NCBI GenBank assembly: GCA_964467035.1
Contig: CAYXNX010000004.1
Span: 89-64,088, forward strand
DNA: 64,000 bases
Origin: Candidatus Woesearchaeota archaeon
Lineage (GTDB): Archaea > Nanobdellota > Nanobdellia > Pacearchaeales > GW2011-AR1
Reading direction: 5' to 3'
A program made the translations under genes and the position numbers. Position 1 is the stretch's first letter. The number at the start of each line of letters is the position of its first letter. Positions 5,993 to 33,720 of the stretch are shown in pieces. The notes under the pieces were generated by a model. It saw nothing but the letters and a program-made list of their open reading frames with translations, was not told the origin of the DNA and made no database searches.

Positions 5993-6136
5993 AACATCGA
6001 AATTTAACGAAGTCGCCGAAGGCGGTTTGGAAAACCGAAGTACAATAAGGTTTCCGTTAAATTCCTGTTATGTCTCCCGACGACTGAAAGGAGGAGAGCG
6101 CAGCGTGGTCGACCGAAGGGAGAAGCGCAGCGTCCC
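5993..6136 (+). repeat. G+C-rich modular junction element E1 (AACATCG left module, CTGTTAT core at 6065-6071, RM-1 right module)
   Basis: Positions 6060-6108 are identical over 49 nt to 32013-32061. The left part parallels 30515-30589. Hairpins cgcc-gaa-ggcg and aaaacc..ggtttc. Confidence 0.75.
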
Positions 6137-6142
6137 TTTAAG

Positions 6143-6376
6143 TTACGAGCCAGCTTTTTGTTTCCTTATTAAAGAATGTATTCCCCAACCTATGATAAAA
6201 CCTATACTTCCGAATAATACGAATAAAAATATTATTGGTAAAAAATCTGTATTGAATTTAGAAAAATCTATGTGTGTATTAGGTAGCCACAACAATGAAG
6301 ATATTCCAATTAATGCTCCAAACCAACTCCCCCACATTTTGAATGGATTGTATAATTTTTTTATTTTATCTGTCAT
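6143..6376 (-). CDS. small membrane protein (cassette cargo)
   Basis: 77 aa with two hydrophobic helices. Flanked by the perfect 11-bp inverted repeat ttacgagccag (6143-6153) / ctggctcgtaa (6425-6435). Confidence 0.45.
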   Translation of the reverse strand: MTDKIKKLYNPFKMWGSWFGALIGISSLLWLPNTHIDFSKFNTDFLPIIFLFVLFGSIGFIIGWGIHSLIRKQKAGS

Positions 6377-6424
6377 ATTATTTTATTGAATTAAATTAAT
6401 ATAAATAACTTTTTATCTTAAAAA

Positions 6425-6590
6425 CTGGCTCGTAATTTCACTTAACGTTCGCGTGTATGAGAAGTTTGCGAAGTAAATTTGGGAAAATTGCGAGCCGAGG
6501 CATTTTTTCTTTTATCCCTTGTTATATGAGGGTGAGCTTGCGAAAGCGCGTAGCGTCTCAGAGGATTTTTTTGTAGAAAAAACCGCAGAG
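6425..6590 (+). repeat. G+C-rich junction element E2 (degenerate core CTTGTTAT at 6518-6525)
   Basis: GNRA-like hairpins (ttgcgaagtaa, cttgcgaaagcg). The right part (gggtgag..gcgtagcg) resembles 33971-34010. Confidence 0.5.
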
Positions 6591-6703
6591 TTGTTTGAAG
6601 GCACTTGTATTAATTTTAAAAATGTCCATTGGGATGGTGGGTTGTTTGATGCCCATTAAATAAGAGAGATTGTCTTTTTGAAAGTTGGAGGGTGGGAAAA
6701 ATT

Positions 6704-7261
6704 CTATTTTGTATCTGTAAAAAATTCTTTTCTAATTTTTATTTTATCTTTACAAGCTTTCCATAAATGATTTGAAAGTGAAAGCCCAGATTTTCTCTTC
6801 CTATCAGTAAAATATGCAAGAATTACATTTATTCCATCTTCAAATAAATCTTTTATGATTGGAACAAAATCAGTATCAGAAGTTAGAACAATTACATCAG
6901 AAATATTTTCTTGTTTTGGAATCCTTGATAAATCAATTGTTAAAAGAGTATCAACTCCTTTTTGTTGGAAAGTATTATCTATTTTTTGACACCTTCCCTC
7001 TCTAACAATAATCCCAACTTCTTTTAATTTTGAAACAAACTTGTCATAATTTGCTTTTCTCCTATTTTCTTCTTTAGTTGGGGTTGAATCTTGATAAGGC
7101 GGAGCGGTGTAAAAATAGATTTTCTTGCACTCAAGATTTTTAGCCTTTGCAAGATTTTTTGCAAAAACTTCCATTTTGTATTTTAGAGGTTTCCCATTGC
7201 CAAAGAATTTAGAAATAAAGGATAAATAACCTGAGTCGATAAATACAATTGTTTCTGCCAT
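6704..7261 (-). CDS. NYN/LabA-like (DUF88) domain protein
   Basis: VFIDSGYL, YFYTAPP, GVDTLLTIDL and VLTSDTDFVPII motifs. Start uncertain (ATG at 7261 or 7273, GTG at 7294). Confidence 0.65.
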   Translation of the reverse strand: MAETIVFIDSGYLSFISKFFGNGKPLKYKMEVFAKNLAKAKNLECKKIYFYTAPPYQDSTPTKEENRRKANYDKFVSKLKEVGIIVREGRCQKIDNTFQQKGVDTLLTIDLSRIPKQENISDVIVLTSDTDFVPIIKDLFEDGINVILAYFTDRKRKSGLSLSNHLWKACKDKIKIRKEFFTDTK

Positions 7262-7347
7262 TATAAAAAGCATCAGGCAACCCCAAAGGATCACCTGGGA
7301 TTATGTTAATATAAGGAAATATTGGAGATTTATAATACTTTCGGTTG

Positions 7348-7884
7348 CTATTTGGTTTTCTCCCAAATTTTATCAAATACTTGTTTAAATGTTTCTGCAA
7401 AAATCTTGTCTTTTATTAAAAATCCTCTTGGTTGTTTTGTGATAATGTATTGAACATATAGGATATCATCAACAACTCCCCATTCTGCTTCATTTTTTAA
7501 ATCTGTAATTTTAGTCTTTGTATTTTTGTTTTCTCTTTTGGAAGCAAGAGATTTAAACTCTTCGGGAATTAGGATTTTTGCTTTAGCATTAAGTTTATTT
7601 CTTTGTTTATGATGTTCATCGTAAAAAGCAACAAATTTTTCAAAAGCAGGTCTTTTTGTTCCATAAATTCTTTCATTGGAGTTTTTAGTTAAAGAGGAAT
7701 TTATTTCGTGCCACATGGCTTTAATTCCAGAAAGACCTTCAAAGTATTTGTAGTTTGATTGGGGTTCTTCTTTAAGGTCTTTTGTTTTTAGTTTTTTTAC
7801 TAGTTCTTGAATCTCTTGTCTTTCTTGTTCAAGAGATTTTTGTTTTTCAATAAATATTTCGTTTAGAGTTTCAGGACTTTTCAT
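7348..7884 (-). CDS. TrmB-like regulator C-terminal part lacking an N-terminal winged helix
   Basis: Coiled-coil followed by a YFEGLSGIKAMW segment, as seen after the wHTH of TrmB-type proteins. No HTH is present; the start abuts element E3. Confidence 0.35.
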   Translation of the reverse strand: MKSPETLNEIFIEKQKSLEQERQEIQELVKKLKTKDLKEEPQSNYKYFEGLSGIKAMWHEINSSLTKNSNERIYGTKRPAFEKFVAFYDEHHKQRNKLNAKAKILIPEEFKSLASKRENKNTKTKITDLKNEAEWGVVDDILYVQYIITKQPRGFLIKDKIFAETFKQVFDKIWEKTK

Positions 7885-7934
7885 AATTATTAGGGGTATT
7901 GTGAACATTATAAAAGTTTGCCAGTAACCCAATC

Positions 7935-8037
7935 TCTTATAATCGCTGTTAGTTTCTCTGAGGATTGATTTTTAATGCAATATGTCCGAGCGGAATGAAA
8001 TGGAGCGAAGGAGTTGCCCCGAAGCGCGCATTATGGT
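7935..8037 (+). repeat. G+C-rich junction element E3 (core CTGTTAG at 7946-7952, RM-2 right module)
   Basis: The right part aligns with 30597-30650 (gagga-ttgattttta-R-tgcaa..atgYccgaRg). gaatgaaatggagcga also occurs at 33811-33826. Confidence 0.55.
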
Positions 8038-10095: not shown

Positions 10096-13000
10096 TTTCA
10101 GATAATTCTACTTTAAACAAGAGTCCTAATAAAAAAACAGATTTTAATGATACTAAAAATCTAAATGAATCAAATCAAACAGGGATTGACGGAAATAATA
10201 CTCCAATTAACAATACCAATAACAATACTAATCCTAAAATAAACCAGTCCAACCAAACTCTAGGAAACAATACAGATTTTAATGAAACCACAAGTAATGA
10301 AACTCTGGATAATAAAACTCTGGATAATAAAACTCAGGATAATGGGACAATATTAAATCAGACCACTAACAATAAAACTATTGAAAACAGAACAACTGAA
10401 GATGAAACTCCTGATAAGGAAACCTATGAGAATAAGACGTTTGAGAACGAAACCTATGGGAATGAAACTTTTTCTAGAGAAAACAAGAGTCTGTTAGTAA
10501 ATATTACAGAGCCAATTCACGAAGATATTAAAATTGGAGAGAATGTTAAGTGGAATTCTAATTTAATTATTTATAATCCTTACAATCATACCTGGAATAA
10601 TTTTTCTATAAACATAACAAAAAAAATCCCTGAAGATGCTTTTAATATTTCTGTTAATGGAAGTAAAAAGGAAAAAATAATTATTTCAGAAATAGATTCT
10701 CAAGAAGAAATAAAAAAAGATATTGAATTTTACACTTCTCCTGTAAAAATTAATATAACTGAAAACAAGACTCAAACCAGTCTTTTGGATATCTTGCCTC
10801 CTGAAGCAAACAATGTTCAAATAAAAGAAATGAAGAAAGAACAAACAAATACATTAGAAAAAAATATACAGAGTTCAAAAAAAGAAAGCCTAAAACCATC
10901 AGATATAAAAGGGGAAACAATAAGAAAAAATATTGTTTTAGAGCATAATTCAAGTTTACATTATAAAAATTTCTCAATAAATATTGATACAAATTCTTCA
11001 AAAGTCAGAGTAAAGGAAAAAGGGAAAAAAGAAGTTTTGTCTGAAAACAGAAAAGGAAAAATAGAATTAAAAGTTGATAGATTATCAAAAAAAAGTTTTG
11101 TTGTTGAAGAACAAGTTGAAGGATTTTCTGTCCTAAAAAAGAAACATAAGGATATTGAGGTTGGAAAAGATGTAAACTGGAGCATGAATCTAAATTTAAC
11201 TTCTGAAAATAAAATTGTAGAAGTCACATATCAAACACCTCCCCCTGAAAAAGAAGAAGAAAGGATTCCAAATGGGAAAAAAGTTAAAGTTTATTCAAAT
11301 TCTTCAAACCATTATTATAATGTTTCTGCTTCCACAGATATTTCTGAATCAAAGATAAAGCCAAGAATCTATCATTTGATTGATGGAAAAAGGGTGGATA
11401 TTACAAATAAAGAAAAATATAATGTTAGATTTATTGATGAAAACAATAATTCAAAATACGACAGAATTGAATGGAATGTCCCAAAATTATCTGAACAGGA
11501 ATTTGAGATTATTGAAATCTCTGATGCTCTTCATTTAGATGAAAACAGGAATTTTATAAGAGATGTTTATGACAAAGTTAAGGAAAAAGACGATAATTGG
11601 GCAACAATTAATAATTCTCAATATTTAAGAGCAACTTTTGAAGAGAATCTAACAGAAGATAATGATATAACTATTTATGCTAGACCTCTTGAGAGTTCAG
11701 GCTCCATAGATATTTATAAAAAAGGAGAGAATAACATAATAGCCAGTTTTGATAATATAGACAATGAGAAAGAATATAAAACTTACTTAGAGGGAATGAC
11801 AGGTTCCTCAAAAACCTTTGATTTAAAGATGTCAGGAGATATAGAACTTGATTATATTACAGACCCTACTGAAGACCCAATGGGAAATAAAGGGGCTATC
11901 TCAACTACTCCTGGAGACACTCCTTTTTATACAATAGATTCTAATCCGCAGAGTTGCAATTTAGATAGAGGAGAAAGTTGCACATTAACTTGGAGAGTTA
12001 ATGCTACAGGCTCAGAAGACACTCCTTGGAATTTTTATGGTATAATAGATTCAATCCATGATTCAGTAAATAACATGTATTCAGAAATAGTTAATGTCAC
12101 AATAACTTCCCTAAGTATTTCAGAGAGTTTTAATCCAAACCAAAATATAGAGACCAATGAAGTTGTTACTGTTTACGGAAATATTGAAACAAGTGGAGGT
12201 GAGAGAATAGGAAATAATCCTGTTTCAATTTATGCTAATGGAAACTCGCTGGGAACTACTTCAACTGATTCAACAGGTTTTTACGAATTTGATTTTAGTT
12301 TACCCACATCAGGAACATATGATATAAATGTCACAGCTTCAAGAAATAACTTATATACAGACAACTCCAAACAAATTAAAATATGGCCTTCTATTAATGT
12401 TACAGAATCAATTAATCCAGATACTACACAAGTAAAAGAAAATGTTAGTATTTTTGGTCATGTAGAACTTTATAATGGAACTATCTTAGAAAATCATGAC
12501 ATAAGTATTTATATGGGCGAAGATGAATTAAAATACAATTCTTCTTCAGGAATGCTTGAAAAAGACGCTACAGGAGATCTAACTACAGATTCATCAGGAA
12601 ATTACAATTACACTTATCAAATACCTTCAGAAGCAGGAGGAGCATATATTGTAAAAACAAACACTTCATATCACCATGAAAGGACAGGAGAAAGTACAAA
12701 AACCCTCTATGTCCAGTCAGGAGATGAAAAACTGGGAGCTATTCCTGAAACAGAAGGAGCAAAACCTTTCTATACAATAGATTCTAATCCGCAGAGTTGC
12801 AATTTAGATAGAGGAGAAAGTTGCACATTAACTTGGAGAGTTAATGCTACAGGACACCAACATGTGGGATTTTCTTTTTATGGAATTATAGAATCAATCC
12901 ATGATTCAGTTAGTGATGTGGAAAGTTCAAAAAACGATATAACAATAGCAGGAATGAATCTAAGCGAGGATTTCAATAAAGTAAGTGTTGATGAAAACGA

Positions 13001-16000
13001 GAGTACAGTGGAAGTTTACGGTTATTTAAACACTACAGATGGAGAGCCAGTAAAGGACCACAATATTTCAATTTATATTGATGGGAATAGATATTATTAT
13101 AATTCGGGAACAGATAAAATTGAACAAGGAGCTTCAGGACAAACTAAAACAGATTCAAATGGTTTTTATAATTACACATTTACTGTTCCAACAGCCAAAC
13201 ATACAGTTTTTATTAACTCAACACTAAATAATATTTATGCAGAAGAAAATAAAACCTTATTGATGCGTCCTGAGTGGAACTTAACATTAAATGGTGTTTC
13301 GGATAATATAACTATAAGTTCAGGAGAAGAGGTAGATGCAGAGATATCTGTTACAGATCCTTCAGTAGCTAACATGAGCATCTATAGAGAAGGAGTTCTT
13401 AGAGCAGAAGTATATGGAGGAGGAAACTTAACTTACATTGATTCAGATTACATTGAAGACAAATACTATAATATCACTGCTTTTTTTCCTGAACAAGAAG
13501 GTTATCTAAGCGACTCTATAACATATTTCGTTATTGTAGGGCCTGATGCGACAAATCCCGATGTTACTCTCCTCTCTCCCGAGAATAATTCAGAACTATA
13601 CGGAACTACAGAATTCAGGTTTCATGTAAGTGATAACTTCCTTAGACCATTAGACTGTTCTTTATACCTAAATGGAACTAAACAAGAAAATAAGTCAGTC
13701 AGTCCTAACAGCAACCATTCTTTCAATATTAGCTCAGTTCCAACAGGTTTTCCTGGAGAATGGTATGTTAATTGTACAGACGAGGCAGGTAATTCAGATA
13801 AAAGCGAGGTTAGAAATTACAATTTTGATAGTACTAAACCATTCATTAATATAACTTCTCCTTCAAACGGAACACTCTTTTACACTCCTACACCTGAATT
13901 AACTGTTTTTGTAAATGACTCTTATTCTTCAAATTTCAATTATTCCATTTTTATAGAAGGAGAGGTTAATAAAGAGGGTGGCGGTCTTACTACAGGAAGC
14001 AACAATATAACAACAAATCAATTGGAAAATGGAACTTATGAAGTAATAGTACAAGCAATTGATGAGTACGGTAATAAGGCTAATTCAACTCCTAAGTATA
14101 TTGAGGTTGATAATGCTTATGTATCTCTAATCTCCCCGGAGGATAACTTTGTTACCACCAGCCCTACAATTAATTTTGATTACAAATACATAGATGATGA
14201 TTATTCTACAGCTGATTGTTCTTTATATGTAAATGGTGCTCTGGAAGATAGTGAAAGTGATGTGTTAGAAGGCACTGAATCTACATTAACTTATGACCAT
14301 GGACAACAAGGGAGGGATATTAACTGGCTTATTGAGTGTGAAACTCCGAACTACGATAGGTCTAGTGAAAGGGCTATTTCAATAGATTATAAGAATCCAT
14401 GGTATAGTGACATCTCTGAGAATCCTGAAAGTGTTGCTAACTATACAGAAGAAAATAATACATTCAGCATAACTGCTAAAGATAATATTGAAATAGGTTC
14501 TGTTGTAATTGAGCATAATTTTTCAGGAACTCCAGAAAATAAAACCCTTGATTGTAGTGGCAGTGATACAGAAAGAGATTGTTCTTTCAGTAAGCAACTA
14601 TCTCCTGGAAATTATTATTATAAGTATTACATCAATGATAGTTTTGGATTAAAAAACTCTACAGAAGAAATCTCGTACATTGTTCAAAGAGAAACTCCTT
14701 CTTTAACTTTAAATTCAGACCCTTCATGGAATGAAGAACTAGGTACAGAAACAAATATAACCTGTTCTGTTGAGGAAAATGTCAATATTTCTTTGTATAG
14801 GGATGGTGTTTTGATGGGCTCTTCTGTTGGAGGGAGTATCTCTGACATACAATCCTTAGATATTGGAACTTACAATTATGTATGTAATAGTTCTGAGACA
14901 TCTCAATACAGGCCCAACTCGATAAGCAATACTTTAAATATAACTAAGAAAGAAGATAACATAGGTTTATTCCTCAATGGAAATCAAAATAATTTGACTA
15001 TTGCCTATGGAGAAGAAAGTAATGCTACTGCAATTTCCGATTCAGGAACTGAACAATTGTTTAGAGATGGTATTGAGATAAGTAATCCAGATATAAACAA
15101 TTTAGGAGTTGGTTATTATGAGTATTTGGCTAATTCTACAGGAAATTCCAATTATTCTTCTGGCGGTCCTGTTGGATATTATCTAAATGTTACGAGAGCT
15201 CAGACCAATATCAATCTAAGTATAGAACCAGATCATATCTACACTGGACAACAAGCAAATTTTACCTGTAATGTTAATCATAACCAATCTCAAATTACTT
15301 TATATGAAGATGGAGCAGAATTGATTTCAGGTTTTGGGAATATTAGTTACTCAAAAACTTATAGCTCTGAAGATAATTATACAATAACATGTAATACTTC
15401 TGAAAGTCAGAACTATACTTCTTATTCAGAAAGTCAGTTATTGGGTGTTGGGCCTAAATCAAATACAACTCTGGATTTAACAGCTAACCCTTCATGGAAT
15501 GAAGTGTATGGAACTGAAACAACTGTAGATTGTTCTGCGAACCATAATGAAGCAGAACCCAATCTTTTTGTAGGGGGAGAAAGTGTTTCGATACCTCACA
15601 CAACAAAACATCCTGCAGGAGAATATAACTATACTTGTAATATAAGTGAAACTGCAAACTATCAACCTGAAGAGGCATCAAATATAATGAATATAACCAA
15701 GACAGAAGATAACATAGGTTTATTCCTCAATGGAAATCAAAATAATTTGACTATTGCCTATGGAGAAGAAAGTAATGCTACTGCAATTTCCGATTCAGGA
15801 ACTGAACAATTGTTTAGAGATGGTATTGAGATAAGTAATCCAGATATAAACAATTTAGGAGTTGGTTATTATGAGTATTTGGCTAATTCTACAGGAAATT
15901 CCAATTATTCTTCTGGCGGTCCTGTTGGATATTATCTAAATGTTACTAGGGCCACCCCAAACATAACCTTAAATTCAGACCCTTCGTGGAATGAAGAACT

Positions 16001-19000
16001 AGATACAGAAACAAACATAACATGTTCTGTTGAGGAAAATGTCAATATTTCTTTGTATAGGGATGGTGTTTTGATGGGCTCTTCTGTTGGAGGGAGTATC
16101 TCTGACATACAATCCTTAGATATTGGAACTTACAATTATGTATGTAATAGTTCTGAGACATCTCAATACAGGCCCAACTCGATAAGCAATACTTTAAATA
16201 TAACTAAGAAAGAAGATAACATAGGTTTATTCCTCAATGGAAATCAAAATAATTTGACTATTGCCTATGGAGAAGAAAGTAATGCTACTGCAATTTCCGA
16301 TTCAGGAACTGAACAATTGTTTAGAGATGGTATTGAGATAAGTAATCCAGATATAAACAATTTAGGAGTTGGTTATTATGAGTATTTGGCTAATTCTACA
16401 GGAAATTCCAATTATTCTTCTGGCGGTCCTGTTGGATATTATCTAAATGTTACTAGGGCAAGTCCTGGCCTTGAGTTTTCCAGTGAAAATGGATTCAAAA
16501 TATATAAAGGCCAAAATACAACTATTGTATGTAATTCTTCAGATGAAAACCTTCTTGTTAATCTTTATAGGGATGGTTCTTTAGTAAATACATCTAATGG
16601 AAGTGTAAGCGAGTTTGTTGATTTTTCAAGTGGAAGTTATGATTATAAGTGTAACACTACAGGAAATAATAATTATTCTAAAGAGGAGATATCTCAAAAT
16701 CTTAATGTCTCAAATAAAACAGAAACTAAATTAGTCCTTGATTCTAGTGAAGGATGGACCATATCTGAAAAGGAGGAAACTACTCTTTCCTGTGAAATTG
16801 AAAATCATGATGAAACAAATGCCTCTTTATTTATAGATGACACTCTGGTTTCAAGTCCTTATAATTTTAATGATTCTCTAGGAGATTATAGCATAAAGTG
16901 TAATTCAAGTGAAACAGAAAATTATAGTTCAGAAACAAAAACTAAAGAATTAAATGTTAGAGAAGAAGGAAGTTGTAATTTAAGTTTTAGTAAGGATTCT
17001 GCATATAGAAAAGAAAATTTTACTGTTTATTGTAATTGCTTAGGCAATAGCCAAGAGCAATTGTTTAGAGAAGGCAATAATGTAACAGAAGAAATTGGCA
17101 AAAATGTTTCATTGGATAGTGCAGGAACATATGGCTATTTATGTTATGCTAATCAAAGTTCTCAATATCTTTATGCTGAAAATACTTCTTCCTTTACAAT
17201 AACTAAAACTCCTTCGGATATAAATTTAACACTTAATGGGGCAGAAAACAATATAACTGTTAGCCAGGAAGAGAATGTAGATATTGTATCCAGTATGGTT
17301 AACCCCTCTGAAGGAAGTATAACTGTTTTTGAAGACGGAAGTATAATACGGGAAGGAGAAAATAGAGTCTCTTTCCTTAAGGAGTTTAATAATCCAGGCA
17401 AGTATAAAATAACATCAAAATTTTCAGGAAACTCTGACTATAGTTCTACTAATGAAAGTTATTATGTAAATGTTCTTAATACAGAAGCTCCTGAAATTAA
17501 TTTGATTTCTCCTGAAGATAATTCCTGGATTTCCACAACAAGCAAAAATTTCAAATTTTCAGCAGATGATGAAGATGATGAAGTCAATTGTTCTTTATAC
17601 ATTAATGGAGGTGAAATTTCAAGTAAACAGGTTTCAACAGGAACTGAGCAACAATTTAGTTTTAATGGTTTAGATGAAGGAGAGAATCAAAAATGGAGTA
17701 TAGATTGTAAGGATTCTGCAGGAAATTATGCAAATAAATCCAGGAATTTCAATGTTGATTTAACAAAACCAAATGCCACTATTCTTTCTGAGGATATGAA
17801 TGTATCAGACAGTACCCCTACAATAGAAGTAGTTATGGAAGATAACTATGCTTCTAATTTATCCTATGAAATTTATGTGGACGATTTGGATAACACACAA
17901 GGTTTTAAATTAAACAAAGAAGGCTCTGGAATTGAAAACGGAACACCCACAAACATTACTCTAGACCAATTATCAAAAGGGACTTATAAAGTATATGTAA
18001 AAGCTATTGATAACGCAGGCAATACTTTTTCTTCTGAAACAATTACTATAGACATTTCCGGAAGTGTGATGTTCCTATTAAGTCCTGATAATAATTACCA
18101 TAGCAGTGACGATGATATAAACTTTACATTCAGGTTCTCATCTGAAACCCCTGAAATGAACTGCAGTCTTTACATTAACGATACAATTGTTGCTAATAAC
18201 GAATCTACAGAAGAGGGTGTAAATACTACTTTTGAGATATTTGATATTCCTGATTATTTTTCAACAAAATGGAGTGTAAAATGTTTCAAACCCTCGGATC
18301 CAGAAGTTAATGCAAATGATACTTATAATCTAAGAGTTGATACAGAAAAGCCCAAGTGGAAAAATCATAGTAGATACTATAATGCAAGTGAAACAGGTAT
18401 AACATACATTAATGTGACATTTACAGATAATTATGAAGTTGGAGATATTATAATGGAGAATGATTTTGATGGTGGGTGGAAAAACACTACTTTAAATTGT
18501 GAAGGAAACAGGACTTATAAGAAATGTAGCTATTCAGAAAGACTTCATGGAGGAAACCATACATATAGGTTTATTGGAAATGATTCAACAGGACAAGTAA
18601 ATAAAACACCTTACTTTAATCATCTTATTATAGAAAAATACGAATTCCTGTTAAATGATAAGGATTCGGATATTTGGGTGCAACCAGGAGCAGTAGTGAA
18701 GGTATATTCAAATTTTGTAGAGCCGGAATCAGGGGATGTTCATGTTTATAGAGAAGATACAAAAATAGGGACATGCAGTAATGCTAACGGATGTAGTTAT
18801 TATCCTTCTTTTGAAGAACCAGGAGTTTATAACATGACAGCTAATTTTTATAGCAATTATACTGATAAAACATATAAGAGAAACCATCTTGTTTATGTTA
18901 ATGGTACTCCACCTAAAACTAATATCTATAAGAATACATCCCATGTAGAGCAAGGGTATGAAAATATCTACATTAACTGGACAGCCAGTGATTCATTTTT

Positions 19001-24692: not shown

Positions 24693-24734
24693 AAATAATA
24701 AATTTATAAATAATGATAAATAAGAATAAATAAG

Positions 24735-27700
24735 ATGCCAAGGGTAAAAAAAGGGGAATACAATAGAATAAAAAAGAAACTACTTTTAAATATATTTACT
24801 TTGATGTTTTTTATTATTATTTTATCAGGTCTTGTTTTAGCTGGAGGGAATAAGGCTGTTTGGACTTATGTAAACAAACCAAATGGAGACCCTGCTGAAG
24901 GAGCTAATGCAACCTACCGTGTTTTTTTAGAAGGCGATACAGGAGGATTCCCCGAATCTGAACAGTGTTACTGTGTTTCTTATCCAGGTGAAACTGCTTC
25001 TGATGGAAGTATGGTGGATGATCTAAGAAATTTAAAATATGAATCAACTTGTGCTTTTGGAGGAAGAGAAAAAGGAGATAGCTGTGGCTTACATTGGTCA
25101 GAAGGAGATCCAATATGGATTTTAGCAGATGGAAGTACAATGGATCCCCCGTTAGGAACAGGCAATGTTTCAGATACAATAGATGCATTTGGAACACAAA
25201 AGCTAGACAACATAACTCTTAGCTCAGGGCCAAATAATCCTCCGAATATTGACAGTGTTTCTCCTGGTTCGGGAAATTGGTATAATGAGTCTTCTTCCCA
25301 AGGTATTTCAGTAGAGGTTAATACTAATGAAGATTCAACATGTAGATGGAGTAAAAGCCCTATGGACTATTCATCAAAACCATATGATTTTACAGGAACA
25401 CAGTTAACTCATAATTATATCCTGGATTTGTGGCAAGAAAATGCAAATAATATTTACATAACTTGTCAGGATTCAGAAGGAGCTAATAGTGATGAGTATC
25501 ATTTAATACTGAACAAGGATACTACTTCTCCTGTTACTGATGATGATTATTCTTATAATGGGGGTTGGTATAATCAAAATGCAATTATTAATTTGAATGA
25601 GCAAGATTCTGGCTCAGGTGTAGATACTACCTATTATTGCATTGATGACTCAGATACATGTTCTCCTTCTCAAATATATAGTGATTCAGTTAATATCTCT
25701 GATGAGGGAACGAGTTACTTAAGATATTATTCAATAGACAATGTTGGAAATATCCAGGAAACCCAGTCTGTTGAAGTAAAAATAGAAAAAAATGCTCCGA
25801 TTACAGAAACAAACTTTACTAATAATAATACATGGGTGAATACAACCCAGTATGTCTGGCTGAACTATACTGATTCTGGCAATGTTTCAGGAAAAGATTG
25901 GACAAAGTATTGCACAGATGCTGGTTGTGATCCTTCAAGTGGAACAGATTATACAAGCCAGGTAGAATTTTCATCTGATCAAGAAACTAGCTTCAGGTAT
26001 GCAAGTAAAGATAATGCAGGAAATATTGAGACAACAAACGAATTAATTATAAAAATAGATAAAACACCTCCTACTACATCAGACGATTACACTCATGATG
26101 GAAGTTGGTATAACGACAATGCAGATATAACTCTTAATGAAAATTGTGATATTTCAGGATGTGAGTGGACAAAATACTGCACAGGAGAAGAATGTAATCC
26201 AAACACTGATTATACAGGAGAAACTATTGACTTTTCTGAAAATGGAACTCTAAGATATTATTCAAAAGATAATGCAGGCAATATCCAAGATGTTAGAGAG
26301 ACAACCATACTTATAGATAAAAAAGCTCCAGATATAAATGACGATTATGCCTATGATGATTTTTGGATAAATCATTCAACAGGAACAATAACATTAACCC
26401 CGAGTGATGCCGGAGGAAGTGGGTTAGAAAATGATCCTGATGCTGTTAAAATATGTGGGGGAGATGGGTGTGACCCTGAATCAACAAGTGGAATAAATTC
26501 TCCTTATGAATTAGATTATAGTTCTGAACAAGAAACTGTTTATAGATATCAATCATATGATAAAGCAGGAAGTGGCTCAGAAATAGGGAATTTTACAGTA
26601 AAAATAGATAAAACACCTCCAAATACCTATGATGATTATGCCTATAATGATACTTGGAATAATAAAAATGCTTCAATAAATTTAATTGAATCAGACCTTC
26701 CAGATCCTGCAAATTCAGGAATAAATATTACTTATTATTGTACTACAGATAATCTCAATGATTCCTGTGTTCTTGAAACAAAATATATAGGAGAAAAAAT
26801 AAATTTTTTTGAAAGCGGAGTTCTTAGGTACTATTCAAAAGATAATGCAGGCAATACTCAGAATGCTAAAGAAGCAATCATTAAAATTGATAAACAGAAT
26901 ATCTCAATTGCAAATGCCTCTGTTTTAATAGAAAATGGTTCAACTTATTCTACAGAAACAACTCTCCATTTTGATTATTTTGGATTTGAAGATCAAGCGC
27001 AACTTTCAGGAATAGATGGTTATTATTATAATTTTTCAAACAATGAAGGAACAACTTCAGGAAGCTGGGATACAGACCAAAATGGAGTTCTATCCGGAGC
27101 TAGCCAAGGGAATGTGAGTGTTTATGTATGGGGTAAGGATAAAGCAGGGAATATAGGTCCTGCAGTAAGTGATTCTATTATAGTAGATTCTGTCAATCCG
27201 GTTTTTTCTAATTGGAATAATTCTCAAATAAAAATGTCTGATTCAGGACCAATGAATATCAATGTAACTATAACAGATGAAACTTCTGGGGTAAAAGGAA
27301 TGCCTTCTATAAGATATAAATATGGAGAAGATAGTTGGTCTGAATGGAAAAATATAAGTTTGGTTTCCGGACAAAACTACACTTATGATATACCTGACCC
27401 AAATGGATGGTATGATTATTACAATGAAAACGTTTCTTGGCAGGTTAGAGCTAGAGATAATGCAGGAAATGAAGTAGATTCATCTATACATACTTTTCTT
27501 ATAGGCAGTGATGAACCAGCACCCATTGTAATACAAAAGAAACTAGAGTTTTTGAATGAAACAAAAGATTTTGTAAGATATAAAATAACAGATAAGGTAC
27601 ATAATACATTAAACAATACAGATATGTCTGATGTCCAGTTTGGAGATGGAGATATAATTCAGAATATAACACCGCCTGAAGACACATTTGACATAATTAA

Positions 27701-29000
27701 AGGAGAAGTTAAGATAAAAGAGAATAATGTTAAAATAGAGAAAGATTCTAAAAATAAAAACCATACATTTGAAACTGCTTATGCAGAATGGAATGGACAC
27801 ACATACAGATCTGTTATCCATGAAGTCGTTATCCCGGGTTATGGTGGTCCTTTTGATATAGGTGTAGATACTCCTCCTTCAGTCAAGCCTTCTGATGATG
27901 TAAGGGGAGACATAAACCTCATTAATATGAATCTAGATATTGGTAAAGATGTGGAAGTTAATTATTGGATAACTGATACAGAAAATAATGTAATAAACGG
28001 GTTAGAAGGGCAGAAAATGGTTTTTGCGGGGTCATTAGAAAATACATCTACTTTTGGGAAATTGAACTCTCCGTCTATTGAAGGAAATTATAGATTTTGG
28101 GCAGCAGTTACCTGGGCAGATGGGCATAATGCTAGTGCTTTTGATAGTTTTAAGGTAGAATCTGGAGGAGATGAAGGGGGTGGAGGCGGAGGTAGTGCAG
28201 GAGGAATTATAGGGAGTGTGGTGGAAGAACCGGAAAAAGAAACAGAAAAGAAAAAATACTTTGAGTTTGATATAAGTTTACCTCTTAAGAGAATAGAAAG
28301 AAATGAAATATTGTCGATATTAACAGGAATAGAAAATTTAGAACATAATACTTCTAGAGAAGTATCTATTGATTATACTATTGTAGATGAAAATAACAAT
28401 AGTATAATTAATGAAGGGGAAACAAAAACAGTAAATATTTCGAAATGTTTTTCTAAAAATATTTTGATTACCAATCAAACAGAAATAGGAGAATATACTG
28501 TTATAGCAGAATTGAATTATGGAGATTTTTCAACAATTTCAAGGGCAACTTTTGAAATAGTACCTGAAAAGACAAAAAATGTCATTAAAGAAAGTAAAAA
28601 TGTATCCTGTTGTCTTTGGTGTATAATAAGTGTCATATTGCTTTTGATAATAATCATTTATTATTTGTGGAGAATAAACAGGAATAACAACCAGATGGAT
28701 GATTCAGAAATTAAAGAGATTTTAAAAGAATCCATATCTGAAGTAAAATCTAAAATAGATCAAATCAAACCAAATAAACAAATATTAGAGAGGATGTTAT
28801 TAATAGAAAAAGAGGGTAAAAACAGAAAAAATATGAAGAAGACTTTAAAGAAATATATGCAAGAATCCATTTATACAAAACATAATAAAAAAATAGAGAT
28901 CATTTGTTTAATAGCTATAATTGCATTTATAATTTTAGGTTTTATATTATTCTGTTTAAGACCTGAAACATTATGTATTGGAGAAATTATATGGAATTAA
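24735..29000 (+). CDS. large surface protein with repeated Ig-like modules of about 95 aa and C-terminal TM helices
   Basis: N-terminal anchor LLLNIFTLMFFIIILSGLVLAGG. At least 5 modules DDY..(D/N)G.WYN...(Y/K)YC...LRYYS(K/I)DNAGN. A Gly-rich linker and two C-terminal hydrophobic helices. Confidence 0.65.
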   Translation: MPRVKKGEYNRIKKKLLLNIFTLMFFIIILSGLVLAGGNKAVWTYVNKPNGDPAEGANATYRVFLEGDTGGFPESEQCYCVSYPGETASDGSMVDDLRNLKYESTCAFGGREKGDSCGLHWSEGDPIWILADGSTMDPPLGTGNVSDTIDAFGTQKLDNITLSSGPNNPPNIDSVSPGSGNWYNESSSQGISVEVNTNEDSTCRWSKSPMDYSSKPYDFTGTQLTHNYILDLWQENANNIYITCQDSEGANSDEYHLILNKDTTSPVTDDDYSYNGGWYNQNAIINLNEQDSGSGVDTTYYCIDDSDTCSPSQIYSDSVNISDEGTSYLRYYSIDNVGNIQETQSVEVKIEKNAPITETNFTNNNTWVNTTQYVWLNYTDSGNVSGKDWTKYCTDAGCDPSSGTDYTSQVEFSSDQETSFRYASKDNAGNIETTNELIIKIDKTPPTTSDDYTHDGSWYNDNADITLNENCDISGCEWTKYCTGEECNPNTDYTGETIDFSENGTLRYYSKDNAGNIQDVRETTILIDKKAPDINDDYAYDDFWINHSTGTITLTPSDAGGSGLENDPDAVKICGGDGCDPESTSGINSPYELDYSSEQETVYRYQSYDKAGSGSEIGNFTVKIDKTPPNTYDDYAYNDTWNNKNASINLIESDLPDPANSGINITYYCTTDNLNDSCVLETKYIGEKINFFESGVLRYYSKDNAGNTQNAKEAIIKIDKQNISIANASVLIENGSTYSTETTLHFDYFGFEDQAQLSGIDGYYYNFSNNEGTTSGSWDTDQNGVLSGASQGNVSVYVWGKDKAGNIGPAVSDSIIVDSVNPVFSNWNNSQIKMSDSGPMNINVTITDETSGVKGMPSIRYKYGEDSWSEWKNISLVSGQNYTYDIPDPNGWYDYYNENVSWQVRARDNAGNEVDSSIHTFLIGSDEPAPIVIQKKLEFLNETKDFVRYKITDKVHNTLNNTDMSDVQFGDGDIIQNITPPEDTFDIIKGEVKIKENNVKIEKDSKNKNHTFETAYAEWNGHTYRSVIHEVVIPGYGGPFDIGVDTPPSVKPSDDVRGDINLINMNLDIGKDVEVNYWITDTENNVINGLEGQKMVFAGSLENTSTFGKLNSPSIEGNYRFWAAVTWADGHNASAFDSFKVESGGDEGGGGGGSAGGIIGSVVEEPEKETEKKKYFEFDISLPLKRIERNEILSILTGIENLEHNTSREVSIDYTIVDENNNSIINEGETKTVNISKCFSKNILITNQTEIGEYTVIAELNYGDFSTISRATFEIVPEKTKNVIKESKNVSCCLWCIISVILLLIIIIYYLWRINRNNNQMDDSEIKEILKESISEVKSKIDQIKPNKQILERMLLIEKEGKNRKNMKKTLKKYMQESIYTKHNKKIEIICLIAIIAFIILGFILFCLRPETLCIGEIIWN

Positions 29001-29443: not shown

Positions 29444-29469
29444 GTGCACAGAAAATTGATTTTATTATA

Positions 29470-29540
29470 TTAAGCCCTGTTAAATCCGCCGACGAACGAA
29501 GTGAGGAGAATGACATACTCCCTGGCCTAAAGGCAGGGGT
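29470..29540 (+). repeat. junction element E4 (core CTGTTAA at 29477-29483, RM-1-like cgacgaacgaagtgaggaga, bulged hairpin 29518-29539)
   Basis: aagccCTGTTAAATCC is shared with 33626-33641. The RM-1 motif is shared with 34978-34997. Confidence 0.6.
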
Positions 29541-30170
29541 ATCTCTTTAAGAAGTTACAAAGTTGTTTGTCTTAAATCTTTAAATTCAAAATTCCATTCT
29601 TCTTGGGAATACTTAATGTATTGTTCAATTACTTCAGCAGTTACTGCTCCAACACTTCGGAAAAATTTTCCAGGGCTCCATAAATGAGGTTTAACTGTTC
29701 CGTCTCTACTAAAAAAAGCATACCATTGAGTACACTTTTTGAAAAAAATTCTCGCGCTTCCTCCTTTCAAAAATTGTAAAGTCATACTCACCGAAATTGT
29801 CGACGGAACTTGTGCAAAACAATGCACATGGTCTGGCATAACTTTTAACTCAATAATTTCTATTTTATGTTTTTTTGCAACTTGTTTGATTGCATCTTCA
29901 CAAATTTTCCGAGGGTATTCTTTTTTGAAAACCGATACATTGTATTTTGGTCTCCAAACAAAGTGATAAGCACTTTGTCCTATTGCGTGTTTTGTATGTT
30001 TTAATTCCATTTTTCTCCATAGCTTTCGCGCACGAAAGCAAACATTTATTTAGTTTGAGAAAGTTTCAACTAGGCAATTTTATGGCGGTTTAACCGCCTT
30101 CTTTCTCGTAATAAATAAGTTTTTTAGAAATAAATACATTTGCACCTCGTCTTAAAAGACGAGGCAGCAG
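29500..30170 (-). mobile_element. IS200-like element (tnpA only); ends approximate
   Basis: Y1 transposase ORF flanked by subterminal hairpins: 29518-29539 downstream, and 30022-30039, 30084-30098 and 30145-30164 upstream. No tnpB/iscB. Confidence 0.5.
29555..30010 (-). CDS. tnpA: IS200/IS605-family Y1 (HUH) transposase TnpA
   Basis: 151 aa. YHFVWRPKY start, HUH motif PDHVHCF, LKGGSARIF, LWSPGKFFRSVG and the catalytic-Tyr region VIEQYIKYS. Confidence 0.85.
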   Translation of the reverse strand: MELKHTKHAIGQSAYHFVWRPKYNVSVFKKEYPRKICEDAIKQVAKKHKIEIIELKVMPDHVHCFAQVPSTISVSMTLQFLKGGSARIFFKKCTQWYAFFSRDGTVKPHLWSPGKFFRSVGAVTAEVIEQYIKYSQEEWNFEFKDLRQTTL

Positions 30171-30241
30171 ATATATTGTAGCGCAGCGGAGTGCGGAGTG
30201 AAACGGAGCAAGTTTTTCCTTTGGCGTTTTGAATACAAAAT

Positions 30242-30249
30242 TTTAAATA
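30242..30249 (+). promoter_or_regulatory. TATA-box-like element about 30 nt upstream of ATG 30272 (leaderless layout)
   Basis: tttaaata. The same spacing is seen at four other cassette genes. Confidence 0.4.
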
Positions 30250-30271
30250 TAACTTAGAATTCTTTAATACC

Positions 30272-30487
30272 ATGGCATTATTAACAGAAACTTCTGCAAA
30301 ATTATTGGAGGAAATGTGCGAAGATAGAACGGGAAAATCATTACAAGAATTTTCAGAACAAGATTTTCCAAGAGATTACTCTCCCGAATTAGAACAGAAA
30401 AGAGCAGAAGTTTCAAAATACAGATTAACCAAACCATCTACAACGCCATGGTATAATCCTCAAAGAATTCTAAGACATTTTAGATAG
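30272..30487 (+). CDS. hypothetical small protein
   Basis: 71-aa ORF with a TATA at -30. Terminates in TAG. No recognisable family. Confidence 0.4.
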   Translation: MALLTETSAKLLEEMCEDRTGKSLQEFSEQDFPRDYSPELEQKRAEVSKYRLTKPSTTPWYNPQRILRHFR

Positions 30488-30514
30488 TTTATAGCCAAAT
30501 GAAAAATTTCGTTG

Positions 30515-30660
30515 AACATCGCGATTAAACGAAGTCGCCTAAGGCGATTTGGGTGGAGAAACCTGCAAGGTTTCGGAACCGTTAAATTCCTGTTAGTTTC
30601 GTCCGAATATTTAGAGGACTTGATTTTTAGTGCAACGATGCCGAAGGCAAAAAATCAAAG
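30515..30660 (+). repeat. junction element E5 (AACATCG left module, core CTGTTAG at 30590-30596, RM-2 right module with hairpin 30620-30660)
   Basis: The left part parallels E1 and 33533-33630. The hairpin is repeated in inverse orientation at 56190-56229. Confidence 0.7.
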
Positions 30661-30796
30661 TTTTTGGATTACTGATAAATTTCGACCGCAGAGAGTATAT
30701 ATGTCCAAAGGAAGAGAGAGTAGGGTGTCTTGTTTTGGTTCTTTTCTAAAAGAACATTTAGGGTCGTCATTTGTCATTTTCTGGGCTACCAAAAGA

Positions 30797-30804
30797 TTTA
30801 TATA
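30797..30804 (+). promoter_or_regulatory. TATA-box-like element about 30 nt upstream of ATG 30829
   Basis: tttatata. Overlaps the left inverted-repeat arm at 30788-30800. Confidence 0.4.
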
Positions 30805-30828
30805 GTAATTGTATTATTGATTATACAT

Positions 30829-31419: not shown

Positions 31420-31894
31420 AATAAAATGGTGTGCTGAGAAAAAAGGAGGATTAAGTTTAGTTGAGCCAAACTCTGATCTCGCAAATGCTTATATCAAGAA
31501 AGCGGAAGAAGCACTTGAATCAATGAGGGTAAACATAATTAAAGATTGGAAAATCTCAACAGCATACTATACAATCTATTTCTCATTATACGCTGTCTTG
31601 ATGAAATTGGGTATAAAATGTAAGATTCATTCTTGTACTATTGAATTTGCAAAAAGATTCCTCGAAGAATATTTTGAAGAAGCAGAGTTAAATTTTACTG
31701 AGGACTCATTAAAAGCTAGAGTCGATTCCCAATATTATATAGACCGAACTGTTCCAGATGAGCAATATAACAAAATGATTCAAAAAGCTCCTGAATTTCT
31801 AGTTAAGTGCAAATCTGTTATTATCAAATTAAACGAGAAAAAGGTTAATGAGATAAGAGATAAATTTCAAAAGGAAATAAGCAAGAGGAGATAA
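31412..31894 (+). CDS. HEPN-domain protein (partner of the MNT)
   Basis: 160 aa, helical. N-terminal AYIKKAEEALESMR is typical of HEPN. Translationally coupled to the upstream nucleotidyltransferase. Confidence 0.7.
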   Translation: MDKIKWCAEKKGGLSLVEPNSDLANAYIKKAEEALESMRVNIIKDWKISTAYYTIYFSLYAVLMKLGIKCKIHSCTIEFAKRFLEEYFEEAELNFTEDSLKARVDSQYYIDRTVPDEQYNKMIQKAPEFLVKCKSVIIKLNEKKVNEIRDKFQKEISKRR

Positions 31895-31956
31895 TTAAAT
31901 GAATACTAAACAGATAATTAACAAGAAAGCTGAATATTGGAAAAAGTGATTACCAG

Positions 31957-32141
31957 TAAATCTTTTGGTTTCAAATTATATTTCTATTTAGCCCGAATTC
32001 TGAATTAGACATAATTCCTGTTATGTCTCCCGACGACTGAAAGGAGGAGAGCGCAGCGTGGCAAAATCCGAAGGATTTTGAGTTCAGAATTCGGGCGTAT
32101 TTGATATTAACTTCAGAGTAGTAAAAGAACCGAAAGATTTA
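31957..32141 (+). repeat. junction element E6: nested-stem structure with core CTGTTAT at 32018-32024
   Basis: Stems 31957-31970/32128-32141 (13 of 14), 31991-32004/32083-32096 (14/14), 32007-32014/32021-32028 (8/8) and 32062-32069/32073-32080 (8/8). Confidence 0.8.
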
Positions 32142-32145
32142 TAAA
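32138..32145 (+). promoter_or_regulatory. TATA-box-like element 30 nt upstream of ATG 32168
   Basis: tttataaa. Overlaps the inverted-repeat arm at 32128-32141. Confidence 0.4.
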
Positions 32146-32167
32146 GATTAGACTTATTCTAAAATAC

Positions 32168-32461
32168 ATGAAAAAAGAAATAATCCCAAGGTATAATATT
32201 GAAGTTCCAACACTAGAGGAACAGCTAAAAGAAGAAGGATTCAAAAGAGTAGCTGAACTTGAAGCAAGAGCTGATGGAAGAGTGGAACTTCCAATTGATT
32301 TAGTCCCAAATACAAAGGGCGGAAAAAATATTTTTGGTAAACCTTACGCGGAATTGAGAATTGTAAATGCGAGAGAAGTTAGCCCATTTGAAAAGAGCGA
32401 TAGAAAATATTTTGTTTACCAAAAAATAGAAGAAAGCCCATATGTATTTGAACAAGAATAA
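32168..32461 (+). CDS. hypothetical protein (cassette cargo)
   Basis: 97-aa ORF with a TATA at -30. Bracketed by perfect inverted repeats. Confidence 0.5.
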   Translation: MKKEIIPRYNIEVPTLEEQLKEEGFKRVAELEARADGRVELPIDLVPNTKGGKNIFGKPYAELRIVNAREVSPFEKSDRKYFVYQKIEESPYVFEQE

Positions 32462-32600
32462 ATCTTTCGGTTTCTATCTTTTAGCCCGAATTCTGATTAG
32501 ACATAATCGCTGTTATACGCCCCGACGAGTGAAACGAGGAGAGCCTGCAAGGCGTGGTCGGAGCGAAGCGACGAAGAAGTGGTGTGAGTTTTCGTTAAAT
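32459..32600 (+). repeat. junction element E7 (core CTGTTAT at 32510-32516)
   Basis: The left part gcccgaattctga-ttagacataat equals the E6 left part. Positions 32539-32570 are identical over 32 nt to 33666-33697. Confidence 0.75.
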
Positions 32601-32603
32601 GAT

Positions 32604-33062
32604 TTAGAGTAGCCTTCGTTTTATTTTTATTAATAAAAAAGTTAATACTATATAAAAAAATCCGATGCAAATTATATAGTAATTTGGAAATGTTTTAAAA
32701 AAAAGAAAAAATCCAAAAGCGTAAGCTATTCCTAAAAAGATTCCTGAAGATGTCCTTAAAATATTATTGCCTTTGGATTTTTTAAAAGCAGATATTGACC
32801 AATCAATTAAAGCAAATATGGGGAAAAAAGCAATTACAAAATAATATAAATTTTTATTTGGTATTTGAAAAGTTAATAACACTATTCCTAAGAGAATTCC
32901 TAAATATACTCCAAGACAACGAGAACAAAAAGCAATTTGTTTATTTTTAATTTTAAATAAATAGCATTTATAATAATCTTCTTTTTTATGATGAGAAAGA
33001 ATATACTTAGAGACTTCACTTAATCCCCTTTTTAATTCTTTTAGTAAATAATTTAGTCCCAT
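32604..33062 (-). CDS. DUF2085-like membrane protein
   Basis: 152 aa with CSRCLGVYLG followed by 4 hydrophobic helices. Confidence 0.5.
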   Translation of the reverse strand: MGLNYLLKELKRGLSEVSKYILSHHKKEDYYKCYLFKIKNKQIAFCSRCLGVYLGILLGIVLLTFQIPNKNLYYFVIAFFPIFALIDWSISAFKKSKGNNILRTSSGIFLGIAYAFGFFLFFKTFPNYYIICIGFFYIVLTFLLIKIKRRLL

Positions 33063-33093
33063 ATTATTAACTAAATATAAGTAGAATAAAAAT

Positions 33094-33432
33094 TTATCCG
33101 TATTTTGCTTTAAATGCAGAATCGGTCATTGTTAAATAAATTATTCCTTCAATTAAACCAATTATTGCAGGAATGAAAGTCCAAAAAAAACACAAATACA
33201 AAATTCCCATTCCAATATCTTCTAAATAAAATTTGTGTGCACCGATTCCGCCAAGTAAAATTCCTAAAAGGCCTGCGGCAACTTTGTTTTTTTCCCTTCC
33301 AGAAAATGAATGATGACTTCTTTGTCTAACGCCACATTTTGGGCATATTTCTGCTTCTTTTTTTATAACTTCTCCACAAGAAGAGCAATAAGCTTCATCG
33401 GATTTTTTTTCTTTCTTGTCTTTTTGAACCAT
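33094..33432 (-). CDS. zinc-ribbon plus TM2-domain membrane protein
   Basis: CSSCG..x..CPKCG zinc ribbon, then AGLLGILLGGIGAHKFYL, which is typical of the TM2 domain. Confidence 0.7.
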   Translation of the reverse strand: MVQKDKKEKKSDEAYCSSCGEVIKKEAEICPKCGVRQRSHHSFSGREKNKVAAGLLGILLGGIGAHKFYLEDIGMGILYLCFFWTFIPAIIGLIEGIIYLTMTDSAFKAKYG

Positions 33433-33532
33433 ATTTATATTTAAAGAAATATAGAACTTTATAAACTTTTTTATTTTTTAAGGGGGCTACTCTTCTAACG
33501 AAGATGTCTAGAAAATTCACACTATTGCAATT

Positions 33533-33720
33533 AACATCGCGATTAAGGAAAGTTAATTTCTCCCGCGAGTGTAACGAGCTGGCTGAGAAATTAATTTAGG
33601 AAAATCCTGCAAGGATTTTCTGTTTAAGCCCTGTTAAATCCTCTGAACAAAATCTTTGATTTTGTGAGAGCCTGCAAGGCGTGGTCGGAGCGAAGCGGAG
33701 GGCGTAAGTCCCAATCTCCA
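33533..33720 (+). repeat. junction element E8 (AACATCG left module, core CTGTTAA at 33631-33637)
   Basis: Hairpins 33553-33562/33585-33594 (10 bp) and 33599-33620 (gaaaatcc-tgcaa-ggattttc). Shares a 32-nt block with E7. Confidence 0.7.

Follow-up and report, generated by a model that had tools for sequence, protein, structure and literature searches.

The XerS/difSL-type modules have a dif site that adjoins the recombinase gene, and the pdif modules of Acinetobacter are delimited by plain double-stranded sites lying in alternating orientation on plasmids. Elements of the CTX-phi type reportedly exploit Xer: in work by Val et al. from 2005, a folded single-stranded attP is said to be used by XerCD at dif. 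In the archaeal XerA/dif system, dif consists of arms separated by a spacer, and in Thermococcales it does not adjoin xerA (Cortez et al. 2010, PMC2958812). Archaeal integrons with a true IntI and clusters of attC sites lacking integron integrases (CALINs) have also been published, some of them in Nanoarchaeota (Ghaly et al. 2022, PMC9668308). The locus compared with these systems here belongs to a 64-kb stretch of DNA, hereafter the window (64,000 nucleotides; positions 89 to 64,088 of the forward strand of contig CAYXNX010000004.1, assembly GCA_964467035.1, Candidatus Woesearchaeota archaeon). It has ~30% G+C and a positive GC skew throughout, encodes a diphthine synthase, and its closest relatives are metagenome-assembled genomes (MAGs) of Woese-, Pace- and Nanoarchaeota, which agrees with an origin in a DPANN archaeon. 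The window contains four copies, every one on the + strand, of a structured element that we call the A module (the "left module" of a preliminary description of this DNA), as well as the gene of a XerA-like tyrosine recombinase. Judging from sequence comparison, we consider it probable (roughly 0.65) that the A module is the folded single-stranded DNA recombination site, similar to attC, of an integron-like and XerA-associated cassette system in DPANN archaea. We would put at even odds the more specific proposal that these archaea capture cassettes with a XerA-type recombinase alone and stack the circles at a dif/attI-like site located before its gene.

Each A module forms a three-way junction made up of a 16-bp closing stem with a 2-nt TC bulge and of two swappable hairpins. 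The consensus is T-AACA[TC]G-NN-ATT(T)AA-NNG / AAGT-hairpin 1-ATTT / GG(G) / hairpin 2 / CNN-TT(A)AAT-NN-C-TGTT-A. T-AACA pairs with TGTT-A in all copies, and the bulge divides this outer box from an inner box of 11 bp (G-NN-ATTNAA-NNG) in which every free position covaries. The spacers measure 8 nt in the 5' arm and 6 nt in the 3' arm, so that the bulge arises only when the strand folds. At the tip, hairpins 1 and 2 are freely exchanged while the junction sequence AAGT...ATTTGG(G) is kept, and a G.T pair is conserved in 110 of 120 copies. The 7-mer ahead of the presumed crossover is R-N-N-T-A-A-C, close to RYYYAAC. In the window, a covariance model built from relatives recovers copy 1 (5992..6070, 71.6 bits), copy 2 (30514..30595, 78.6 bits) and copy 3 (33532..33636, 60.2 bits) with E-values from 1e-11 to 1e-16, together with a degenerate copy 4 (6443..6524, model match 6441-6527; AACGTTCG...CTTGTTA) at 32.8 bits and E 5e-5. 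Copy 1 is an attC-like three-way-junction hairpin running from T-AACA[TC]G through the closing stem to CTGTT-A, with CGCC-GAA-GGCG as hairpin 1 and GAAAACC/GGTTTCC as hairpin 2. The closing stem of copy 2 has mismatches and opposes a 5' arm of the CG-ATTAAACG type to a 3' arm of the CGTTAAAT-TC type, and copy 3 has an A/T stem of 10-11 bp in place of hairpin 1. The preliminary description had placed its three copies correctly, beginning with AACATCG-NN-ATT(T)AA and finishing with TTAA-N3-4-CTGTTA, and folding finds in each of them the hairpins that it named. Nevertheless, their 3' ends lie a few bases further than it had them, at 6070, 30595 and 33636, and the fourth copy, which the covariance model brings out, had been overlooked.

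The family extends well beyond the window. An exact-pattern scan of one genome per species found at least 119 loci, of which ~109 are genuine among the matches listed; the locus counts given below refer to these listed matches, the loci being taken as stretches of 8-20 kb (designated by L and a number where they must be told apart). Nearly all genuine loci come from DPANN archaea. The covariance model finds at least ~185 copies of the A module in 105 loci besides the window, and the family spans more than 100 species-level genomes. Two to six A modules are present in 42 of the 105 loci, never on mixed strands and with a median spacing of ~1 kb. The longest open reading frame (ORF) runs against the folded strand in 42 cassettes and along it in 22. 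The orientation of the A modules relative to neighbouring genes varies, whereas it is constant between A modules and relative to the downstream tyrosine recombinase gene. The window's own cargo includes toxin-antitoxin pairs, methyltransferases and a transposase, and its proteins match only Logan unitigs of ~1 kb, which stop inside the repeats. A pattern scan of viral contigs gave four matches, all of them due to chance and devoid of hairpins, and a BLAST search with the A module and the module that follows it found no match in plasmid and phage collections.

The three copies of the window cannot by themselves prove covariation, but the wider family does. Each of the six free pairs of the closing stem shows changes on both sides in a set of 81 distinct copies taken from other genomes, where 92.9% of the cells are paired; none of 500 shuffles matches this, and slid controls reach 29-45%. 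In a set of 120 copies, of which 61 lie outside the exact search pattern and were not selected by it, 18 of 24 pairs change on both sides, with 94.3% pairing over 483 cells, 0 of 500 shuffles on all five measures and 29-52% in slid controls. Both the closing stem and hairpin 1 covary, and so do positions that were fixed in the search pattern (ATT/AAT replaced by CTT/AAG or GTT/AAC, and G7:C by A:T). The earlier view that structure is kept more than sequence is thus borne out in both sets.

The ends of the mobile unit can be read from blocks shared by otherwise different loci. L033 and L096 have in common a block of 734 bp (93.6% identity) which extends from the 5' end of an A module to the TAACAT of the next site, this next site being another A module in L096 and the terminal site followed by the recombinase in L033. 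In L026/L072 (99% identity) and in L109/L110, identity begins exactly between the T and the AACATCG; in L048/L051 the upstream body is common and the sequences diverge at TAAC into different A modules. These ends place the crossover within the T-AAC of the 5' arm, and the cassette on the folded strand is made up of the A module, the module on its right and the genes, in that order. A boundary between CTG and TTA, or between TTAA and N3CTG, had been envisaged from the motif that is common to all junctions; it was abandoned in view of the shared blocks and of the pairing described next. In 68 cassettes bounded by consecutive A modules, the 5 nt after CTGTTA were compared with the 5 nt before the next T-AAC. 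The start of a cassette forms 47, 52, 59, 49 and 42 Watson-Crick pairs out of 68 with its own end at the five positions, against 28, 27, 33, 28 and 27 with the adjacent upstream flank, that is, with its neighbour in the array; the mean total of the own-end pairing is 4.93, compared with 3.27 +/- 0.16 in shuffles. When paired with the cassette's own end, the outer box lengthens to ~10 bp (x'TAACA/TGTTAx). Since the own end pairs and the flank does not, the outer stem would be complete only in a circularised cassette, as in the R''/R' boxes of integrons. In the window, only the cassettes 32024-32506 (5/5) and 6525-7942 (4/5) obey this rule.

In the window, the sequence ..TAA-N3-CTGTTA occurs at ten intergenic sites, all on the + strand and each followed by a G+C-rich right module, and the hairpin has been lost at 7 of the 11 junctions. 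The 3' motif that the preliminary description gave for its three copies is also found at the seven hairpin-less scar junctions, again on the + strand. These are TAA-TCGCTG-TTA (7940..7951), TAA-GCCCTG-TTA (29471..29482), ACATAA-TTCCTG-TTATGT (32012..32023), a junction at 32504..32515 ending cassette 32024-32506 (in which TGTCT at the start pairs 5/5 with AGACA at the end), two junctions at 33958..33969 and 34962..34973 which end the first and second copies of a 121-nt repeat described below, and TAA-TGCCTG-TTA (35843..35854). The flank upstream of the 32012..32023 junction is also present in L075, where it is followed by a full A module. This common flank indicates that the hairpin was deleted exactly, from the TAA of the 5' arm to the TAA of the 3' arm. 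Given these precise TAA/TAA deletions and a nonsense codon in the recombinase gene, the system is decaying in the window. A further rearrangement is seen in L113 (2722-2808), where the interior of the A module, with both hairpins and the junction, is inverted within an unchanged closing stem, the outcome expected from recombination between the two inverted arms.

The right module that follows copy 2 (30596..30810, + strand) contains G+C hairpins with GNA loops, GGGGCGTC-like repeats and a TATA-like box. Similar modules follow every ..CTGTTA, for instance at 6071-6150, 32024-32100 and 33637-33720, and are co-inherited with the A module in other genomes. The left module is not a stand-alone unit but the hairpin part of a larger site, which comprises the A module, 5 nt on each side of it, the downstream right module and a partner site beside the recombinase. 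The right module could be a promoter, a set of accessory binding sites or a priming signal. It runs on for ~200 nt (30660-30810 in the window; also in L025, L026, L072 and L089), with three GGGGCGTC-like boxes, A/T-rich hairpins between them and then a sequence, 'aaagatttata', resembling a transcription factor B recognition element and TATA box (BRE/TATA). L026 and L072 are 99% identical over 304 nt, with both flanks unrelated. A perfect inverted copy (46 nt) of part of the right module at 30621-30666 is found 25 kb away (within 56113-56229, - strand), in a region that matches the right module of L004 at 89% and is itself an isolated right module, in opposite orientation and outside any array. 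Another long-range inverted repeat, ttcagaattcgggc...aaccgaaagatttat against ataaatctttcggtt...gcccgaattctgaa, brackets the ORF of the cassette that encodes a small protein of 97 amino acids (32085-32165 and 32465-32500) and is conserved in L075 (1880-1950 and 2400-2470).

The preliminary description left open whether the elements act as RNA, as folded single-stranded DNA or as both, with an emphasis on expressed structured RNAs. In the RNA case, the A modules would be structured noncoding RNA genes transcribed from the + strand, whose three-way junction acts as RNA. This is the best surviving alternative, albeit an unlikely one. It would account for the strong covariation, for the conserved G.U pair and junction nucleotides, for the presence of G+C-rich islands in a 30% G+C genome and for the TATA-like box of the right module. 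The + strand also folds better than its complement in 103 of 106 copies with RNA parameters, and in 93 of 105 with DNA parameters. Yet the array has no match in Rfam 15 at E<=1, and a search of the whole window at the gathering score returned just one tRNA and one signal recognition particle (SRP) RNA, leaving the elements unmatched. The loops, which had been described as often GNRA-like or UGCAA, are mainly GNA triloops rather than GNRA or UNCG: 112 of 218 are triloops, mostly GNA, with T(GCA)A, C(GAA)G and C(GTA)G as the main forms. GCGNAGC and CCGAAGG are "mini-hairpin DNA" motifs found at single-strand replication origins (PMC13037366, PMC3201870), and d(GCGAAGC) melts at 76.5 C whereas r(GCGAAAGC) does so at 39 C (PMC13037366). 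GCGNAGC is counted 252 times on the folded strand of the loci and 50 times on the other, and 11 against 0 times in the window. An RNA gene would moreover leave unexplained the start/end pairing over ~1 kb and the break in homology between T and AAC, since pairing between the start of a cassette and its own far end is to be expected only if the unit is DNA and becomes circular. Further arguments against it are the constant placement and orientation with respect to a DNA recombinase, and the precise hairpin deletions and the inversion at positions typical of a recombinase core; two thirds of the cassette ORFs would also be antisense to the transcript. The RNA reading is thus not favoured, and the probable answer lies in the single-stranded DNA option of the earlier proposal rather than in the one that it emphasised.

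The arrays end at a site beside the recombinase gene. In the window, this dif/attI-like terminal site (36246..36304, + strand) has a left arm ending in TTTTGATTAA, a CAGACT spacer (36260-36265) and the right arm TTTAACGAAC; the full order is TTGATTAA-CAGACT-TTTAACGAAC, then a loop, then GTTAAAAGTCTG. The sequences CAGACTTTTAAC (36260-36271) and GTTAAAAGTCTG (36293-36304) form a perfect hairpin of 12 bp. The site is kept 80-250 nt upstream of the gene in 8 of 8 homologous loci, which were sampled by their recombinase gene independently of the hairpin, as well as in L139. It has imperfect inverted arms of ~11 bp around a 6-bp spacer, as in AATTTCGTTGAA-CAGACT-TTTAACGAAGT from L136, the layout known from archaeal dif (PMC2958812), and its right arm TTTAACGAA is the arm sequence of the A module. 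Four of the eight sampled contigs (L131, L132, L134 and L135) end 190-500 nt upstream of the recombinase gene, just past the terminal site, which fits assembly breaks at repeated modules. The 121-nt repeat occurs in three copies with 64-95% identity (33838-33958, 34844-34964 and 36139-36259), all of which finish with the core's left arm (..TTTTGATTAA); the terminal site is on the third copy, and the other two bear scar junctions. This repeat suggests that the region beside the recombinase has been copied into the array.

Such cores could in principle recombine as double-stranded DNA. In that case, TAA-N6-TTA cores would be used as in pdif modules or Xer-exploiting elements, and the hairpin would merely consist of inverted binding sites or play an accessory or regulatory part. 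The seven window junctions in which only a simple core is left, such as ACATAA-TTCCTG-TTATGT, the dif-like layout of the terminal site and the XerA-like nature of the recombinase are all congruent with it. We nevertheless regard this possibility as quite unlikely, because two protein-binding half-sites explain neither the base-by-base covariation nor the swapping of hairpins 1 and 2. There is besides a strong strand asymmetry in the use of G.T against A.C pairs and in the mini-hairpin motifs, the unequal spacers of the two arms yield a bulge only on folding, and the x/x' pairing extends a stem instead of forming a binding site.

The recombinase gene itself (36395..37234, + strand) is interrupted by an in-frame TAG at 36659-36661, where a homologue with 76% identity has Trp (TGG-to-TAG). 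Its product is colinear with the XerA of Pyrococcus abyssi (4a8e), and its best solved relatives are the XerA of P. abyssi (5e-38) and of T. acidophilum. The best family is NF040815 (recomb_XerA_Arch), with 195.9 bits, below its cutoff of 220. TIGR02249, whose cutoff is 265, reaches 163 bits in two stretches. When the protein is aligned to VchIntIA (2a3v), there is a break where residues 181-202 of the query face 181-243 of IntI4, and ~41 residues, corresponding to the IntI-specific domain, are absent. The gene is probably the genome's own XerA, as its housekeeping neighbours indicate. Tyrosine recombinases are the top and only clearly common protein family across the ~110 loci. The recombinase is present in 17 of 109 loci and lies downstream of the A module on the same strand in all 17, as it does in the window. 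In L139, the nearest relative that is intact, the recombinase-Dph5 synteny is kept but there is just one cassette, so that the cassette content differs from that of the window at a conserved locus. A metagenome scan with the recombinase as query yielded one useful relative, L122, in which the gene is truncated behind a scar junction. Damage near the boundary between the N-terminal and catalytic domains is in fact seen in three related genomes: the window, L075 (4656-5506, a frameshift) and L122 (9926-10498, loss of the N-terminal domain behind the scar). It could reflect coincidence, repeated decay or a recoding signal.

The association with XerA bears on a third explanation, in which the A modules are ordinary attC sites in CALINs, served by a true IntI encoded elsewhere, and the neighbouring XerA-like gene is irrelevant. 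Their attC geometry (AAC...GTT ends, two paired boxes, a bulge, a variable tip and a cassette-sized spacing), an outer box that is complete only in the circular form, and the reports of integrons and CALINs in archaea, some of them Nanoarchaeota (PMC9668308), would all be expected in that case, and some of the arrays may have been scored as CALINs in earlier surveys. We still hold this explanation to be very unlikely. No second recombinase family is common to the ~110 loci, the XerA-like gene is downstream on the same strand in every locus where it is found, and the conserved site upstream of it carries the arm sequence of the A module. The conserved AAGT / ATTTGG junction is unlike a freely variable terminal structure. 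In the archaeal survey, only 6 Woesearchaeales genomes are listed, with few attCs each (PMC9668308), whereas A modules occur in >100 species-level genomes, and in those of its supplements that were searched neither the A-module motif nor the contig accessions of the loci have a match. A literature search found no earlier description of the A module family or of XerA-linked cassette arrays.

The idea of repetitive extragenic palindrome (REP) or miniature inverted-repeat transposable element (MITE)-like hairpins moved as single strands by the IS200/IS605 TnpA (Y1) encoded at 29555-30010 is close to refuted: a Y1_Tnp gene does lie within the array and strand-specific hairpins are found at IS200/IS605 ends, but a TnpA homologue is present in only 1 of 109 other loci, that of the window sits in one cassette like other cargo genes, and genes of diverse kinds lie between the elements, which are spaced by ~1 kb and stop at a site linked to the recombinase. 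The TnpA gene (Y1 transposase, 151 amino acids, - strand) shares its cassette-like unit (29483-30516) with an ORF of 71 codons, and a Logan unitig from SRR11308339 spans exactly 29480-30570.

The preferred explanation thus remains that of a folded-DNA cassette system. On the + strand, the order of a cassette is CA-[A module hairpin]-CTGTTA-x(5 nt)-right module-gene(s)-ATT-x'(5 nt)-TAA. Successive cassettes follow one another head to tail, up to the dif/attI-like site just upstream of the recombinase gene, on the same strand. The hairpin would form whenever the + strand becomes single-stranded, for example while it serves as the template of the lagging strand. The recombinase would then cleave near the junction of TAA and C in the 5' arm and exchange one strand between two sites, which would free a circular cassette whose outer stem of 10 bp (x'TAACA/TGTTAx) is now complete. 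The circle could re-enter at the terminal site, replication resolving the junction as in integrons and the CTX phage. The TC bulge, the conserved G.T pair and the GNA mini-hairpins may set the choice of strand and hold the site folded.

Several observations call for caution with this folded-DNA scheme. The support is comparative throughout, for recombination, for circular cassettes and for single-stranded intermediates alike. Across genomes, the A and right modules keep together as a conserved block that can reach ~300-430 nt even where the genes are different, which could mean that the block has a function of its own. A conserved G.U-type pair and conserved junction bases (AAGT / ATTTGG) are features that RNAs typically show as well. 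The arm that would be cleaved is the one with the 2-nt bulge, unlike the extrahelical bases of attC, and just 2-3 cassettes within the window follow the own-end rule. Some of the MAG labels outside archaea (Bacteroidales, Desulfobacterales and others) may be binning errors instead of a real spread. The recombinase looks like the ordinary XerA of the genome, with its colinearity to P. abyssi XerA and its housekeeping neighbours. Finally, all four independently sampled recombinase loci with 10 kb of upstream sequence are free of A modules, which makes the arrays facultative and links them to the enzyme by position only.

If the proposed system is right, the capture of cassettes through folded DNA would be untied from the integron integrase, a plain Xer-type enzyme and a hairpin site being sufficient, with consequences for the question of how integrons originated. 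DPANN archaea, which with their small genomes rely strongly on acquired genes, would also have in it a route of gene exchange. The rules of the family are clear, namely a boundary between TAA and C, own-end pairing and a conserved partner site, and the repeats would explain why assemblies break just upstream of the recombinase gene.

Two other regions of the window can be mentioned. On the upstream side of the array and abutting it, 10785-29000 is occupied by two giant ORFs (4635 and 1421 amino acids) with many internal repeats and Laminin_G-like neighbours. Farther away, a 71-nt tandem repeat (51338-51578; 3.4 units, 98-100% identical), each unit of which bears a CCGAAGG mini-hairpin, directly follows the SRP RNA match at 51207-51305; oddly for an archaeon, this match is to the bacterial small-SRP model, right at its threshold (40.2 against 40 bits).

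Compared with the known systems, the arrays resemble the pdif modules of Acinetobacter in that small gene modules, often toxin-antitoxin or resistance genes, are bounded by Xer-type sites, but here the sites are all direct, chromosomal and endowed with covarying hairpins. They resemble archaeal XerA/dif (Cortez et al. 2010, PMC2958812) in a recombinase that is colinear with P. abyssi XerA and in a site with arms of ~11 bp and a 6-bp spacer; unlike it, the site is 80-250 nt upstream of the gene, part of a hairpin and the end point of cassette arrays. As in elements of the CTX-phi type, the folded strand would imitate a Xer core whose central region is mismatched, a host enzyme of the Xer family would be used, and successive insertions at one chromosomal site would build tandem arrays. 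The units here are nonetheless single-gene cassettes without replication or virion genes, the stem has one long arm and a short outer box instead of two full arms, and the host is an archaeon with a single XerA. As regards integrons, the A module is like attC in being an imperfectly paired hairpin whose ends keep AAC...GTT, whose tip is variable and whose two paired boxes, outer and inner, are separated by a bulge. The one strand that folds is the coding strand of the recombinase, as is the bottom strand of attC relative to intI. The sites share one orientation at intervals of ~1 kb, most ORFs run against them, and the recombinase has a simple attI-like site beside it. The crossover would fall between ..TAA and C, and the two sides of the outer box are complementary only if they belong to one and the same cassette, as in its circular form. 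The differences reside in a neighbouring recombinase that is XerA-like and devoid of the ~40-residue IntI-specific domain, in a tip built as a three-way junction whose junction bases and G.T pair are conserved, in the position of the 2-nt bulge on the 5' arm, in the structured right module after every A-module site, and in the many junctions without hairpin. A XerA-only cassette system of this kind, to which we give even odds, would be an integron in function without the IntI-specific domain. It would then either have been invented independently or show how integrons came out of Xer systems.

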